Source: a plasmid. Taken from it: DNA of 64,000 bases. Positions 5,475 to 56,737 of the stretch are shown piece by piece. Position numbers and translations under genes: made by a program. Position 1 is the stretch's first letter; each line of letters opens with the position of its first letter. The DNA is taken from the sequence record NZ_CP110908.1. One strand, given 5' to 3'. Below the pieces are notes generated by a model that ran no database searches, was not told the DNA's origin, and was given only the letters and a program-made list of their open reading frames with translations.

Positions 5475-5719
5475 TGGGCAGGAGGCATCACCGCGATACC
5501 GTTCCCTGCCGCACGCTGCCTGTTCGTCGCGTCCGGTAACGGGTCAACGCCGACCGTGGAATAACGAGCCGACAATTCTCATCGTCGGCGAGCTTATGCC
5601 GCGAAAGCGGCTTGAAGGGCGCGCCTTAAACTGGCGAGGGTATGGCGTAAAATCACAACGACGCCGGGCCTGAGCGATAAAGACGCCCGTCCCGTGACAG
5701 GCCGGACGCGGCACACTGG
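5475..5719. repeat. Leading-region structured element, copy 2 (Frpo/ssi-like candidate), immediately 5' of the DUF1281 gene
   Basis: Collinear homology with 3785-4028 (CCGTTCCCTG...CCGGTAACGGGTCAA...GACCGTGGAATAACGAGCCGACA...GGCGAGCTTATGCCGCGAAAGC...GGCGTAAAATCAC...GGCACACTGG). Confidence 0.5.
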
Positions 5720-5955
5720 CAGCGGGTGGCAGTCAGCAACAGGCGGGCAGGAATGGCCGTGGTGATCAGAGGATTTATGGGAAGGGAAAACACCAGAGAG
5801 GGAGCAGATGACATACCAACAGTTCTGCGCCGGTCCTCCACAGGGTTATTAACCGATTCTGTGGATAACCTGACATCTGTTTTTCCAGGCAGAACAGTTA
5901 CCTGACGGGAAACAGCAAAATTTCACTTGCAGGACAGGAAATATCTTAAATAATA

Positions 5956-5990: not shown

Positions 5991-6413
5991 ATGTTACTTT
6001 TTGTCGCCCCCGAACAGGAGCCGGTGCAGTCCACTGCCCCGCTGTTCACCGAACGTTGCCCGGCGGGTTTTCCGTCGCCGGCCGCCGATTACACCGAAGA
6101 AGAGCTGGACCTGAACACTTACTGTATCCGGCGTCCGGCTGCAACGTTCTTCGTCAGGGCTATCGGGGATTCGATGCGGGATATGGGTCTGCATTCCGGC
6201 GATTTAATGGTGGTCGACAAAGCAGAGAAACCCATGCAGGGGGATATCGTTATCGCGGAAACAAACGGCGAATTCACGGTTAAACGCCTGCAGCTGAAGC
6301 CCCGCATTGCCCTGCTGCCGATGAACCCGGCCTACCCCACGCTCTATCCGGAAGAACTGCAGATTTTTGGGGTGGTGACGGCTTTTATACACAAAACCCG
6401 GAGCACAGACTGA
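5991..6413 (+). CDS. umuD: Translesion DNA polymerase V accessory subunit (UmuD/MucA family)
   Basis: 140 aa; S24 peptidase signature GDSM...K; FPSPAADY region aligns to UmuD. Confidence 0.9.
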
Positions 6414-51526: not shown

Positions 51527-53143
51527 CGGCCGATTCTGTTGAAAAAGTAGCTTTAGCGGCAGCCTGCCGATCAGGTGTGCCTGCTGTCGAAGTGGCTGCA
51601 AGCCACTTCAAGTTGCCTTCCGGCGTTTCACTGAGCGTCCTTGCTCAGGTTTAAGGGTTAATTTGAGGGTTTCTGCTCGTAGCAGGCATACCTATCCCGT
51701 CAGCGGTGGCCCTTGAGGCAAAAGCTTGGCCATGCGGCGCAGGTTCTGCACCATCGCAGCCAAGGTGAATTCGTCAGTGGCACCCGTTAGGCCACGCAGT
51801 CGTAAACGGTCGAGTTTCATGATCCGTTTGAGGTGGGCGAAAAGCATCTCCACCTTCTTTCGTTCGCAGCGAGAGACGAGGTACTCCGGTGTCTTGGCGA
51901 TGCGTCGAGCCACGTCGCGGGCAGCCTCATGGATGCTGCGGACGATCTTCCGATTCGGCGTGTTGGGGCAGCATTTCGCTTTCAACGGGCAGGTGGCGCA
52001 GTCGGTTTGGCTGGAGCGGTAAATGACGGTTTTGGCCTTAGTTACCCGCGACCTTTGCTGGGTGAAGGCGCGCCATTCACTGCGTAGCGGTTTGCCGGCT
52101 GGGCAGCGATATTCATTGGCGTCCTGACTCCAGTGAAAGTCGTTACTGGAGAGGCTGTCGTCCTTGCGCTCGGTCTTGTCCCACACCGGCACATGCGGTT
52201 CGATGTCCTTTTCTTCGACCATCCAGGCCAGCATCGGGGCGGTGCCATAAGCGGTATCGCCGATAAGGCGTTCCGGTGTGAGATCGAACTGCGCCTCGAC
52301 ACGCTCGACCATCGTCCTAGTCGAATCGACTTCGGCGGTACGGTGCGCCGGGGTAGCTTCCACGTCCATGATCACACCGTGCTCAGTGTCGATCAGGTAA
52401 TTCGTGGAGTAGGCAAAAAAGGCCGGGCCACCTGGCGCTGCTGTCCAACGGGACTGAGGATCAGTGAGCGAAATTTTCTTGGGAAGAGCCTCAGCCAGCG
52501 CCTCTTCATCAAGGGCTTCGAGGTACTCGCGCACTGCGCGGCTGCTGAGCTTTGGATCGTTCCAATCGACCTCATCTCCCGCCACCCCACGTTGCCGGCT
52601 GGCATCCGCCTTAATGATGCTGGCGTCGACGGCGAAACCTTCACCCTTGACTAGGCCGGCTGCCATGCAGCGCCGCAGCACCTCATTGAATAACCAGCGG
52701 AATAGATCGCTGTCACGAAAACGCCCATGGCGATTCTTCGAGAAGGTCGAGTGATTGGGGACTTCGTCTTCCAGACCCAACCGGCAGAACCAGCGATAGG
52801 CCAGGTTCAGGTGCACCTCTTCGCACAATCGCCGCTCGGAACGAATGCCATAGCAGTAGCCGACGACCAGCATGCGCACCATCAACTCCGGGTCAATCGA
52901 GGGACGCCCGATGGGGCTATAGAAATCTGCCAGGTAGGCACGTAGATCACTGAGATCCAAGCACTGGTCGATGCTGCGCAGGAGATGTTGGGCCGGGACG
53001 TGATCTTCCAGATTGAACGAGTAGAACAGGCGCTGCTGTCCTCCCGGTAACTGTCCCATCATGCTGTTCGCCCCCACGCTCGCTGACAAAGCAATTTTGC
53101 CAACGGCATGGGGAGGCCGCTACTTTTTCAACAGAATCGGCCG
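51527..53143 (-). mobile_element. IS1182-family element (ISCfr1-like), 1617 bp
   Basis: Perfect 25-bp terminal IRs CGGCCGATTCTGTTGAAAAAGTAGC (51527-51551 and 53119-53143); 465-aa DDE transposase. Confidence 0.75.
51692..53089 (-). CDS. IS1182-family transposase
   Basis: 465 aa. Confidence 0.8.
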   Translation of the reverse strand: MSASVGANSMMGQLPGGQQRLFYSFNLEDHVPAQHLLRSIDQCLDLSDLRAYLADFYSPIGRPSIDPELMVRMLVVGYCYGIRSERRLCEEVHLNLAYRWFCRLGLEDEVPNHSTFSKNRHGRFRDSDLFRWLFNEVLRRCMAAGLVKGEGFAVDASIIKADASRQRGVAGDEVDWNDPKLSSRAVREYLEALDEEALAEALPKKISLTDPQSRWTAAPGGPAFFAYSTNYLIDTEHGVIMDVEATPAHRTAEVDSTRTMVERVEAQFDLTPERLIGDTAYGTAPMLAWMVEEKDIEPHVPVWDKTERKDDSLSSNDFHWSQDANEYRCPAGKPLRSEWRAFTQQRSRVTKAKTVIYRSSQTDCATCPLKAKCCPNTPNRKIVRSIHEAARDVARRIAKTPEYLVSRCERKKVEMLFAHLKRIMKLDRLRLRGLTGATDEFTLAAMVQNLRRMAKLLPQGPPLTG

Positions 53144-53176
53144 CACACAGCCATTCGGCTCAACAGAACCCTGCCT

Positions 53177-54333
53177 TTACCCCACCAAACTCCGGAAACT
53201 CGCCCGGTAGTCCGTCGGCTTGAGATGCACATGTTGGCTGAGGTCGCCGGGTAGCGTGAACAGGCGCGGACCGTCCCGAAACTGGAACACGCGATACAGA
53301 TGGAATTGATCGCCCGCCTCCTTGGAGAATTCGAGTTCGTTGTGGCTGACCAAGAAAGACGAGCCTACCCCGCCATTGGTGGTTTTCACCTCGATGAAGC
53401 GCTCATGGGCGTCCTCTTCGAACGACAGGATGTCGAACCCCGCACCGTCTCCCTGGGTGTCGGACACCCAATCCAGCCGCTGAAAAAGCTCTGGGTGGCC
53501 GAGCTCGGTCAGGCGTTGCTGTTCGTAGCCAATCACCCACTGCTCCCCTGCCCGGCCCAGCTTGCGGTTGGCTTCATCGCGAGCGGCATAATCGAACTTT
53601 CGCGGTAGGCGTTGCCGTAGAGATGCCGGGGTACGCACAAGCACTTCACGGGCGGGTGGTTCTACCAAAGCCGCTCGGTAGGTTTTGTCACCCGGAAGTT
53701 TTACCTCCTCCAGGGCATCGACAAGAGCGCCGACCGTCTGCTGATGTTCCAGAACGTAGGCGTGTACGGATTTACGCAGCAGCAGTTGGCTGTTGCCGCG
53801 TGGCTTGTAGCCGTTGATATAGGGCAGGCCCAGGGCATCGAGTACGGCGCTAATGTTCTGGTGCTTGAGCTCGACTGAAGACTTGCTGCGACCGTTCAGC
53901 AGTTGGCGCAGTGCCTGGTTGTGCTCGGACTTGTGGTACGGCTCCCCAGCCGCCTCGGCACGCAGCATGTCGAAATAGTCTTCGACCGTGGCCAGGACCT
54001 CTTCTTCGGACCAGTCTTCGCCGATGCGAATGATGCGAAACCCGAGCCGCGTCAGCGCCGGAACGACGGTCGTCTCGCCACCGGAGAAGCTGTCAGCAGT
54101 GAGCGGGCCCTGCTCGGGAAATTGCTTGCCGAAGGCCACACCGGCGATGGCCTTGGAATCGCAATCGGTGCCGGTCTTCGGATCACGTACCAGGAAGTCG
54201 CGGGACTTGCCGTAGCCGTGGCGCGCCAGGAATTTCGTGCGGCCCAGTTGCACGAACTCATCGATGGCAGCCTGCACGGCGGCGGGGCTTCGAAGCTGGG
54301 AGAGTTGAGACACAGGGTCCTTCCTTACTGTCA
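53177..54333 (-). CDS. DUF3883-domain protein (C-terminal NO VEIN-like domain), possible defence-related
   Basis: C-terminal WVIGYEQQRLTELGHPELF...GAGFDILSFEEDAHERFIEVKTTNGGV...HLYRVFQF matches DUF3883; start trimmed to MTVRKDPVSQ (uncertain). Confidence 0.55.
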
Positions 54334-54363
54334 TGGTGTGCCGGGAACCGCCGAGCCACGAGA

Positions 54364-54609
54364 TTATGAGTAGCCCCTGAACAGAAACGTCACGATAAAA
54401 GCCGTGAACGCCACCAGGCCCATTAAATCCCTTGCGTATTTGCAGCCCGTGCTGTCCAAACCTGTACCAGGTCCGATCAACACGCTCCAACCATTGAGGT
54501 ACGAAAACACCGCCTGACCGAACAAAAAATGCGTGATAGCCGCCGCAGCCATGACGCCGGAATCGTCAGACAGGCTGTAGCTGTTGACCATTGCCCTGTA
54601 CGCCTGCAT
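54364..54609 (-). CDS. Small hypothetical hydrophobic protein (81 aa)
   Basis: ORF only. Confidence 0.25.
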   Translation of the reverse strand: MQAYRAMVNSYSLSDDSGVMAAAAITHFLFGQAVFSYLNGWSVLIGPGTGLDSTGCKYARDLMGLVAFTAFIVTFLFRGYS

Positions 54610-54895
54610 CTGAAATGGCTATTGCCCTGATGGGAGCCGGCTTTTCAGCCACCGACACCAGCGATGCCGTCAATATTCTTTACCCGATAACCATGACCGT
54701 ACAAGCTAACAAGGCCTGGCAAGCCAGCGGACTTAAAAAGTCTTTTTTTCTACCATCCCACAAAAAAGTTCGTGGTGGAGAAAAGATAAGCTATGCAAGG
54801 CTTTAGGAGACGTGGTTTTTCAGGATGACGAAGAACGATTCGGCGCTAGGTGCAACATAGGTGCATCGCACGAGCGCTAGGAACGGCGAAAAAAG

Positions 54896-55194
54896 GCGGA
54901 CGTGGCGAAATCGGTAGACGCAGCAGACTTTAAAATTGGAGTGCCCGCGGGGAAATCCGCGGAGTAGAACCGCTCAAAGTCGGGGAACGCTAACGGGCAA
55001 TACCCTAAGCCAATCCCGAGCCAAGCCCCTTCGGGGGAAGGTGTAGAGACTGGACGGGCGGCGCCTAAAGCCTTCGGGCAATGGCGAAGGGACAGTCCAG
55101 ACCACGAACGTCATCAGACGGCGGCGAAAGTCGAGGTGGTACGAAAATCTGCTTCTCTGTGAGAGTACGGGTTCGAGTCCCGTCGTCCGCACCA
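54896..55194 (+). tRNA. tRNA-Leu(UAA) interrupted by a group I intron (~213 nt, 54931-55143) in the anticodon loop
   Basis: 5' exon GCGGACGTGGCGAAATCGGTAGACGCAGCAGACTT (acceptor, Leu-type D-arm, anticodon stem GCAGA, C32 U33 U34). 3' exon AAAATCTGC-TTCTCTGTGAGAGT (long variable arm)-ACGGGTTCGAGTCCCGT-CGTCCGC-A-CCA. Intron has P1 (ACUU/GAGU with U.G), core GGTGTAGAGACTGGACGGGC similar to the Azoarcus-type IC3 intron, and ends in G before the 3' exon. Confidence 0.75.
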
Positions 55195-55287
55195 CAAAGC
55201 CAAACATCCCTGCGATGATCGACCTCTGGGCGTTTGGTCGTGAGCCCGCCACCCTCGCGCTACGCTTTGCGCAGGCGTCGAAGGCGA

Positions 55288-55830
55288 TCAGGTGCGCCCA
55301 TCGATTCCGTCGAGCACCATCGCTGCGAGTTCATCGCTGGTGTGTGCACCACTATCGAGAACACGGGTTGTGCATGGAAGCCGTTCCCTTGCGGCCAAGC
55401 ATCGGGCGACATTCGCTAATCGCCACTCTCGAATCTCCGCATTTCGATTCGGGTCAGGATGCATGGTCTGGTTCGCGATCCGGTGACGCAATAGGTCCTC
55501 GTTGAGCGTCAGAAAGATGTGCAGCAGCTGATCGTCGATCCGCCTTACCCCGTCGAGTATCTCAGTCAGATAGTCCGGGTGCACGAGCGTCATTGGGATG
55601 ATGATGTCCTGCGAGTAATTCCTTCGAATCTCCCTGACCGCCGCGATCGTAAGTCCCCTCCACAAGGGGAGATCCTGATAGTCTCCGCTCGCTGGCATGG
55701 GGACCGTTTCTTTCACCACGAACCCGATTTCCTCGGGGTCAAAGATCAGCGATTTGGAACGCCGATCGCGCAGCCGCTTAGCGAGCGTCGTCTTTCCGGC
55801 GCCGAAAGGTCCGTTGATCCAGATTATCAT
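55288..55830 (-). CDS. tmrB: Tunicamycin resistance protein TmrB (ATP-binding)
   Basis: MIIWINGPFGAGKTTLAKRL...; classic partner of aac(3)-II. Confidence 0.9.
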   Translation of the reverse strand: MIIWINGPFGAGKTTLAKRLRDRRSKSLIFDPEEIGFVVKETVPMPASGDYQDLPLWRGLTIAAVREIRRNYSQDIIIPMTLVHPDYLTEILDGVRRIDDQLLHIFLTLNEDLLRHRIANQTMHPDPNRNAEIREWRLANVARCLAARERLPCTTRVLDSGAHTSDELAAMVLDGIDGRT

Positions 55831-55842
55831 TGTCGACGGCCT

Positions 55843-56703
55843 CTAACCTGAAGGCTCGCAAGAGCGCTCGACGGCCTCGTGCGGAGGCACGATCGGAGTG
55901 GTTCCGAAATGCTTCTCAAGATAGGTGACGCCGAACGTCACGATGTCCTGCGCGTCGAACAGGTAGCACTGAGCAAAGCCCACGACACCTTCTCGATGGC
56001 GACCGAGCTTCACGTAAGCATTTGCTATAGTTTCAACCGCATCCGGCTTTCCTTCGATAGCAAAGCAATCGAGAATGCCGTTTGAATCGTAATCCGATGC
56101 CGTTTTCCAGGCGACTTCACCGTCTCTTCCAAGCATCGGCATCTCATACGTCACCCACCGTTTGTTGGGGATATCGGCAACCGCCTCGGCGTAGTGCAAT
56201 GCGGTAACGGAGTTTAGCGGCGCACCCAACAGCAGGGCCTTCCCGCCAAGGCGAACGAACCGCTCGACGGGCGATCCTTCCCCCAAGGCGTGACCGAGTT
56301 CGTGAGGCTCCGTCAGCGTTTCAGCCAGCGGACCAACCGCGACCATCGATGCATCGGGGTGCGCGCTGCGCCGCGCGCCGGGGGCTTGAACCAGAAATTG
56401 ATTCAGCAGGCCGAACCCACGGTAAGTCCCGGCTGTTGCGGGATCGAACGGCAGCCAGGTACGGCGGGCTTCGTCATCCAGCCGAGCGCCATTCAGAGTC
56501 TCCTCGTAGGGTGATCGGTCCCACGACGCGTATCCCATCACAGTGCCAGTCGGCCCAACCGCGGAGCGTAACGCGGCAACGACCGTCTCCGCTCCTCCTT
56601 CGACCGGACCAATCGCTTTAAGTGAGGCATGCACCATCAAGAGGTCACCGGTTTGGACTCCGAGTTTTTGAAGCGCCTCCGTTATTGCCTTCCGCGTATG
56701 CAT
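55843..56703 (-). CDS. aac(3)-II: Aminoglycoside 3-N-acetyltransferase AAC(3)-IIa/IIe (gentamicin/tobramycin resistance)
   Basis: MHTRKAITEALQKLGVQTGDLLMVHASLKAIGPVEGG...; start ATG at 56701-56703; the longer ORF ran into the Tn3 IRR. Confidence 0.95.
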   Translation of the reverse strand: MHTRKAITEALQKLGVQTGDLLMVHASLKAIGPVEGGAETVVAALRSAVGPTGTVMGYASWDRSPYEETLNGARLDDEARRTWLPFDPATAGTYRGFGLLNQFLVQAPGARRSAHPDASMVAVGPLAETLTEPHELGHALGEGSPVERFVRLGGKALLLGAPLNSVTALHYAEAVADIPNKRWVTYEMPMLGRDGEVAWKTASDYDSNGILDCFAIEGKPDAVETIANAYVKLGRHREGVVGFAQCYLFDAQDIVTFGVTYLEKHFGTTPIVPPHEAVERSCEPSG

Positions 56704-56737
56704 CGCGATATCTCCTCTAAACTGCAAAACACTATAC

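Follow-up and report, generated by a model that had tools for sequence, protein, structure and literature searches.

The 64,000-nt stretch of plasmid DNA analysed here (sequence record NZ_CP110908.1; hereafter the window) carries, at positions 54896-55194 of its plus strand and beside the resistance genes tmrB and aac(3)-IId, what is almost certainly a tRNA-Leu(UAA) gene with an intact group I intron. The intron class is known; its location beside aac(3)-II on resistance plasmids is new. We also regard as very probable the complete reading developed below, i.e., that the intact gene contains a self-splicing intron of the Leu.3Ug/IC3 type, that it is a passenger of the resistance module, and that its gene type looks in nature like part of a genomic-island family.

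The tRNA-Leu(UAA) gene and its group I intron

Joining exon 1 (54896-54930) to exon 2 (55144-55194) gives 86 nt that ARAGORN calls as tRNA-Leu(taa), so that the exons do join into a recognizable tRNA, of the identity claimed for them in the original prediction. The joined molecule has a 7-bp acceptor stem (GCGGACG/CGTCCGC), a 3-bp D stem, the anticodon loop CUUAAAA, a long variable arm and a T arm. Exon 1 contributes the 5' strand of the acceptor, the D arm, the 5' strand of the anticodon stem and C32, U33 and U34, the last being the splice-site U; exon 2 provides A35 and A36, the 3' strand of the anticodon stem, the long variable arm, the T arm and the 3' strand of the acceptor, followed by the discriminator A (55191) and an encoded CCA (55192-55194).

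Between U34 and A35 lies the 213-nt, IC3-like intron (54931-55143, plus strand), which is preceded by U and has G as its last base, and which is supported by an RF00028 match, a drawn structure and covariation. In the P1 hairpin (54927-54942), exon ACUU and intron UA pair with the internal guide sequence UGGAGU. The remaining helices, all on the plus strand, are P2 (54945-54962), P3 (54970-54975 with 55056-55061), P4 (54980-54985 with 55014-55019), P5/P5a (54989-55010), P6 (55020-55042), P7 (55050-55055 with 55095-55100, pseudoknotted with P3), P8 (55062-55086) and P9, which consists of two hairpins, P9a and P9b (55102-55139). We drew this P1-P9 and tRNA model by hand, guided by a permissive RF00028 alignment; all 85 of its base pairs form in the window copy, with 0 mismatches, and an unconstrained minimum free energy fold recovered most of the helices independently.

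Species-representative genomes were scanned with two core stretches, CCGAGCCAAGC...GGTGTAGAGACT, which yielded at least 120 loci. Of these, 37 were full-length with the same exon ends; together with a copy on a Bradyrhizobium plasmid (L002) they make up the 38 relatives that, with the window, form a covariation alignment of 39 sequences. The exon/intron ends (..GACTT/AAAATCTGC..) are the same in all 38, the splice-site pair U(54930).G(54939) is present in 39/39 sequences, and both the terminal G (55143) and the core GGUGUAGAGACU..GACGG are invariant. The intron length, the U.G in P1, the core and the terminal G named in the original prediction are all confirmed.

Standard pairs occupied 91.9% of the cells of this alignment, compared with 35-44% when the partners were slid by 1-3 columns; 44 of the 85 pairs showed changes on both sides, and none of 500 shuffles reached the observed values. 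Covariation was seen in P2, P3, P5, P6, P8, P9a, P9b, every tRNA stem and the variable arm, as well as in the P1 pair that lies beside the splice-site U.G, inside the intron. P4, four of the six P7 pairs and the joining segments were invariant. A conserved P3-P8 core, including the P3/P7 pseudoknot, is thus backed by covariation, and because 38 full-length relatives show compensatory changes, chance is excluded as the source of the structure.

The plasmid copy shows no sign of decay. It keeps 131/131 columns that are invariant in the 38 relatives and differs at only one of the 165 columns conserved in at least 36 of them; the substitutions that separate it from its three nearest relatives fall 3-5 times less often on paired than on unpaired sites and leave pairing intact. 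Among the matches listed, those nearest relatives are a Bradyrhizobiaceae chromosome (L035, CP078014.1; 14 of 299 nt differ), a Novosphingobium (L057; 20 differ) and a Rhodovulum (L007; 26 differ), i.e., all are alphaproteobacterial, with 91-95% identity. The sequence relatives among the matches listed belong to Alphaproteobacteria and Acidobacteriota, not to cyanobacteria, and the core-motif scan also matched the cyanobacterial genomes L076 (Nostoc) and L058 (Oscillatoria). Several rhizobial loci from the same scan match over the intron part only, and the intron therefore sits in a different tRNA there.

A tRNA-Leu(UAA) split at 34/35 is one of the four classical bacterial cases, named 'Leu.3Ug' and assigned to subgroup IC3 (10.1101/2020.01.27.920355). 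The Leu.3Ug introns of Nostoc/Anabaena and of chloroplast trnL share with the window the tRNA itself, the insertion point (CUU/...g/AAAA), the U.G pair and the terminal G, and like the window intron they contain no homing endonuclease gene. They differ in that the window intron is shorter (213 nt), has alphaproteobacterial and Acidobacteriota relatives, and resides on modules mobilised by the insertion sequences (IS) IS26 and ISCfr1 in Enterobacterales, Acinetobacter, Aeromonas, Vibrio and Pseudomonas. The IC3 subgroup is probable, judging from the class assignment in the literature and the helix set and not from subgroup-specific models. Other proteobacterial tRNA introns (Azoarcus tRNA-Ile, Agrobacterium tRNA-Arg) are likewise small IC3-type ribozymes in the anticodon loop, with a core CCGAGCCAAGC...GGUGUAGAGACU which, in the Azoarcus intron, we take to be like that of the window; those introns are described as chromosomal, whereas the window intron is on a plasmid.

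Given this class membership and the intact core, the intron would be expected to splice itself out by the two-step guanosine pathway. In the folded precursor, exon ACUU would pair with the intron guide sequence to form P1, whose U.G pair marks the splice site; P7 would bind free guanosine, which would attack the 5' splice site. The terminal G (55143) would then replace the guanosine, the exons would be ligated at the junction GACUU/AAAAUCUGC, and RNase P together with 3' trimming would give a CCA-ended tRNA reading UUA and UUG.

A few further occurrences came to light alongside these relatives. The IC3 core pattern matched contigs assigned to a Methanosarcinaceae metagenome-assembled genome (MAG; L069), a Lachnospiraceae MAG (L054) and Vibrio agarilyticus (L094), which could be other intron hosts or mis-binned contigs. 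One MAG contig (L023) has a full gene at 5517-5826 on the plus strand and, about 300 nt away and in the opposite orientation, a truncated copy at 6103-6285 on the minus strand, whose exon 1 is 100% identical to that of the window and whose first 172 nt are 90% identical. In Gordonia phage Daredevil (NC_048021.1), 41862-42116 matches tRNA/intron positions 16-247 at 68%, with no annotated feature; it is possibly an intron-containing tRNA gene in an actinophage.

An unannotated gene on a mosaic resistance module

Neither ARAGORN at default settings nor Rfam at gathering thresholds reported the gene: the former called no tRNA anywhere in the window, and the latter gave nothing across its whole length. 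A permissive Rfam search of 54700-55400 matched RF00028 at 54921-55113 (36.8 bits, E=1e-07). The relatives fare no better: ARAGORN at default settings missed 6/6 of those checked, and none of 18 natural relatives reached the RF00028 gathering score, the RF00028 model being one without bacterial seed sequences (10.1101/2020.01.27.920355). The silence of the default detectors is a limit of sensitivity, and the whole clade is an annotation blind spot. A 2026 survey, which found 34/35 tRNA-Leu introns in Pseudomonadota and Cyanobacteriota, likewise reports that standard tools miss such genes (PMC13011429). Consistent with the expectation that annotation would overlook this one, 28 of 30 sampled E. 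coli rows annotated with the Prokaryotic Genome Annotation Pipeline had no feature below the match, one had a 'hypothetical protein' only, and the remaining one covered the downstream flank only.

The gene is nonetheless widespread. A 401-nt stretch around it occurs in 1,316 plasmids of PLSDB, in 1,312 of them at 99% identity or more, and the hosts comprise Escherichia, Klebsiella, Salmonella, Acinetobacter, Enterobacter, Shigella, Citrobacter, Aeromonas, Pseudomonas, Vibrio, Proteus and others. Among complete E. coli genomes, 646 of 5,426 (~12%) carry it, at 601 places on plasmids and 82 on chromosomes. The exact TmrB protein is indexed in 25,365 blocks of a public assembly collection, and 10/10 of the exact-TmrB contexts examined contained the identical, uncalled tRNA gene; all of them were the IS-bounded enteric module.

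That module, within which the original prediction had correctly placed the gene, is the aacC2-tmrB-orf192-orf228-orf1182-ISCfr1 unit of Tn2-derived resistance regions (reference JX101693; PMC7096625), orf1182 being the DUF3883 gene of the window. Published descriptions of it (PMC7096625 and related) name no tRNA or intron, whereas the window copy has one. Our literature search, which mostly left subscription journals outside, so that an earlier mention is possible, found no prior description of a tRNA or group I intron with tmrB, ISCfr1 or resistance plasmids.

Comparison of its parts shows the module to be a mosaic in which the tRNA and the resistance genes both point to Alphaproteobacteria. 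On the left, ISCfr1 and the DUF3883 gene (ScoMcrA_N and NOV_C domains; 51528-54312) form one contiguous block that is 89.6% identical over 2,786 bp to a Stutzerimonas kunmingensis contig (L141; GCA_032109055.1), and relatives of the DUF3883 protein are from Stutzerimonas and Pseudomonas (86-89%), so that this part of the module derives from Gammaproteobacteria. In L141 and related contigs the DUF3883 gene follows a gene for a 1,729-aa DEAD/UvrD helicase, which the plasmid module lacks. Next comes a segment without a match (54313-54728), which covers orf228 (54364-54591) and part of orf192 (54615-54806). Of these two small ORFs, which the literature and RefSeq both list, probably neither is a gene: orf228 has no relatives outside copies of the module, its one 'distant' match (L148) being a frameshifted assembly of the same module, and orf192 overlaps the spacer and the orphan-half scar described in the next section. 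The spacer and the tRNA-Leu/intron gene (54729-55196) align contiguously with the Bradyrhizobiaceae chromosome L035, the upstream spacer or leader itself being delimited at 54760-54895 (plus strand) by alignment with the nearest relatives.

To the right of the gene, tRNA-side homology stops at 55194-55196 in every relative and Rhizobiaceae-like homology starts at 55290. The intervening 95-nt junction (55195-55289), from the tRNA 3' end to the tmrB stop codon, matches relatives of neither side, and 93 nt of it (55197-55289) lie outside both BLAST alignments. Beyond it, on the minus strand, are tmrB (55288-55830) and aac(3)-IId (55843-56703), and the block containing them (55290-56737) shows 86.3% DNA identity to a native aac(3)-tmrB pair in metagenome contigs from JGI/Logan (L133-L135). 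There, an aac(3)-family gene and tmrB overlap in an IS-free chromosomal neighbourhood that is syntenic with Sinorhizobium meliloti (L137-L140), where tmrB stands alone at 81% identity. The nearest TmrB homologues are Rhizobiaceae-like (88%), followed by Sinorhizobium (81%) and Paracoccus (70%). By these comparisons, the evidence points to a Rhizobiaceae-like origin for aac(3)-II/tmrB.

The original prediction had suggested that the gene might reveal a non-enteric donor of the resistance segment. This held in part: the nearest relatives of the tRNA and of tmrB/aac(3)-II are alphaproteobacterial, but they belong to different lineages, the left flank is Stutzerimonas-like, and the scan of genome contigs gave no direct donor, i.e., no match at 99% identity or more among the matches listed. 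Proteins neighbouring the gene in the module had no match in any relative locus.

Integrases, orphan halves and a possible island family

The left limit of homology with L035 falls in a short scar (54729-54759, plus strand) that consists of the tail of an orphan, intronless tRNA-Leu(UAA) 5' half (..GGACTTAAAA) and the junction sequence AGTCTTTTTTTCTACCATCCC; 54729-54770 is 85.7% identical to L035:3552-3592 (E=3.5e-06). L035 and L057 have the full intronless 5' half, about 170 nt upstream of the gene, and it stops right after the anticodon loop. In other relatives, a tyrosine recombinase of 420-470 aa (Pfam Phage_integrase/SAM-like) lies between the orphan half and the gene. Across three orders, these integrases share 50-52% identity with one another, and a full integrase or a C-terminal remnant directly precedes the gene, in the same orientation, in 11 of the 38 relatives, among them Acidobacteriota, a Binatia MAG and the copy on the Bradyrhizobium plasmid.

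We examined the association reciprocally, fetching 80 metagenome loci by integrase homology alone, 69 of which had room downstream. An intron-containing tRNA-Leu was present within 400 nt downstream of the integrase in 46 of the 69 and at 1-1.6 kb in six more, and an orphan half lay about 150 nt upstream of the integrase in at least 33 integrase-anchored loci. A few integrase loci had an apparently intronless tRNA-Leu instead; the one checked (L169:11234-11320) is a tRNA-Leu(CAA), and since an integrase of the same family is followed there by an intronless tRNA, the intron is not obligatory for the association. Seven further loci (L155, L157, L171, L180, L190, L206 and L224) gave partial matches, mostly a tRNA-type 3' end just after the integrase, which suggests that they are like L169.

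The recurrent unit, seen in Alphaproteobacteria, Acidobacteriota and other phyla (L006, L018, L035, L057, L073, L115 and L149-L228), comprises an orphan half, a tyrosine integrase, a complete intron-bearing tRNA gene and variable defence or mobile cargo. In many loci the integrase is a decayed remnant, and the DNA after the CCA varies by locus (C5 methylase with Vsr, AbiEii/AbiEi, ArdC and similar). The Bradyrhizobium copy, on the conjugative alphaproteobacterial plasmid of Bradyrhizobium sp. ISRA443 (NZ_CP094524.1, 4522-5290), combines an integrase remnant with an intron-containing tRNA-Leu(UAA) gene that is unannotated and lies about 750 nt from the trb transfer operon.

All orphan halves end in ..GACTTAAAA, with acceptor strands that depend on the host (GCCCGGA, GCCGGGA, GCGGACG and others), and intact genes almost always have GCGGGCG/CGCCCGC. 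In 25 of 27 comparable loci, exon 2 pairs 7/7 with its own exon 1 and, where the two differ, only 3-6/7 with the orphan. Because exon 2 pairs with its own exon 1, the intact gene was imported whole and the orphan is what is left of a resident gene that was severed within the anticodon loop; a chimeric gene, to which the island gives exon 1 and the intron and the resident gives exon 2, was rejected on the same ground.

On this comparative evidence, the gene looks like a replacement tRNA at the integrase end of a genomic-island family. Known islands that target tRNA genes through tyrosine recombinases resemble it in having an integrase beside the tRNA, a crossover in the anticodon loop and variable cargo at the tRNA 3' end. 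They usually supply the 3' part of the tRNA, leaving a 3' fragment behind. In the present loci, by contrast, a 5' half is left over and lies before the integrase, and the intact copy is an imported gene that is complete, self-consistent and intron-bearing. We tentatively suggest an undescribed island family that would insert within the resident tRNA-Leu(UAA) gene, at its anticodon loop, destroy that gene and bring a complete replacement, although we think this rather unlikely to hold in full. That the intron, by splitting the target, might protect the island's own tRNA from its integrase is a speculation to which we give equally little weight.

As for the plasmid copy, the window resembles the integrase-less form found in L035 and L057, and its spacer, considered as a deletion product of an integrase region, had no similarity to integrase flanks or remnants. 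Given the shared orphan-half scar, we find it reasonably likely that this copy descends from the integrase-linked island type. In our main reading, the IS26/ISCfr1-mobilised aacC2-tmrB module brought the alphaproteobacterial-type gene to enterobacterial plasmids as its passenger, and the gene has spread with the module unchanged. In the module, tmrB/aac(3)-II stand where the variable cargo of the natural relatives begins, right after the CCA.

Rival readings and significance

Several observations weigh against the complete reading or parts of it. The fold energy is ordinary for the base composition (z=-1.31) and hence uninformative, so that the structural support rests on covariation and not on energy. 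The RF00028 match of 36.8 bits lies below the gathering score of 50, and at that threshold the Rfam part of the refuting condition named in the original prediction (no RF00028 hit) was formally realised, the check succeeding in its permissive form only; because none of the 18 natural relatives reaches that score either, we read the shortfall as a limit of the model and not as a missing intron. On the plasmids, aac(3)-II is present in 2,339 compared with ~1,316 for the tRNA, and these ~1,000 aac(3)-II plasmids without it imply that the module can do without the tRNA and frequently loses it by trimming; that the plasmid copies are nearly 100% identical is a mark of recent spread and not of selection. 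No tRNA adjoins aac(3)-tmrB at the native, Rhizobiaceae-like locus (L133-L135), and the tRNA and the resistance genes may therefore have been joined secondarily. With regard to the island history, the left scar exists as an orphan half in relatives and a tail in the window, but the displaced resident 3' half, expected at the right end, was found within ~9.6 kb in none of the loci (imported-type and resident-type acceptor sequences were both tried), and 54250-54950 of the window holds no integrase remnant. Finally, the 600 nt that precede the gene yielded no promoter in a strict sigma-70 scan.

This last result bears on expression. A block at 54837-54865, GATTCGGCGCTAGGTGCAACATAGGTGCA, is conserved with the two nearest relatives (L035 and L057) and is a candidate native promoter region, to which -35 and -10 boxes could not be assigned by eye. 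There is a considerable chance, if somewhat less than an even one, that the gene is a silent passenger in enteric hosts, i.e., intact but not transcribed, or not processed or charged. The lack of a sigma-70-type promoter in the 600 nt upstream, the placement of all upstream genes on the opposite strand, the many aac(3)-II plasmids that no longer carry the tRNA and an identity across plasmids that recent spread explains are all in line with silence. Conversely, the conserved block, 30-60 nt upstream, may be a promoter that escapes the strict scan, the D arm and discriminator A73 conform to the common pattern of bacterial tRNA-Leu (presumably matching the identity elements of leucyl-tRNA synthetase), and group I splicing needs no host protein.

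An expressed tRNA-Leu(UAA) that is selected because it aids UUA/UUG decoding, as phage and plasmid tRNAs sometimes do, strikes us as improbable. The gene is intact and kept in most aac(3)-IId-type modules, but it is frequently lost from aac(3)-II plasmids at large, E. coli has its own tRNA-Leu(UAA), leuZ, and the neighbouring resistance genes have one TTA codon each, a count that also led us to drop the idea of a bldA-like tRNA serving rare TTA codons of those genes. Still more doubtful is a role on the opposite strand, in which the structured complement, just downstream of tmrB, would act as the 3' end or stabiliser of the aac(3)-II-tmrB transcript: gene order, strands and the high helix content would suit it, but no terminator-like site was found on the minus strand of 54896-55289, the conservation pattern is that of a plus-strand tRNA and ribozyme, and modules without the tRNA stretch still carry aac(3)-II. 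Least probable of all is a decayed relic, a pseudogene with an intron or exons that have ceased to function, since the sub-threshold RF00028 score (shared by natural relatives) and the miss by default ARAGORN are set against fully retained invariant columns, a single change among the near-invariant ones and the integrity of every helix.

We thus favour an intact tRNA-Leu(UAA) gene with a group I intron, for which splicing, charging and expression in enteric hosts, as well as the island origin of the plasmid copy, are what we infer from its sequence and its relatives. On this reading, about one in eight complete E. coli genomes and more than 1,000 clinical plasmids contain a catalytic RNA gene that is invisible to standard annotation and absent from accounts of one of the best-studied resistance modules. 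It offers a natural experiment on whether a foreign intron-bearing tRNA is expressed, spliced and charged in enteric bacteria and, together with tmrB, a phylogenetic marker pointing to an alphaproteobacterial source for aac(3)-II.

The finding also bears on how such introns spread. From the missing homing endonucleases, the 2026 survey, in which plasmids and enteric genera go unmentioned, infers that horizontal transfer is probably infrequent (PMC13011429); contrary to that inference of rarity, endonuclease-less group I introns do move horizontally, on plasmids and beside an integrase. The integrase/orphan-half architecture is a lead to a new use of tRNA genes by islands. If the proposed island family is real, it would provide a route of horizontal spread for endonuclease-less tRNA introns, and it would explain why a ribozyme gene sits beside aac(3)-II/tmrB, which fill the island's cargo slot, on clinical plasmids.

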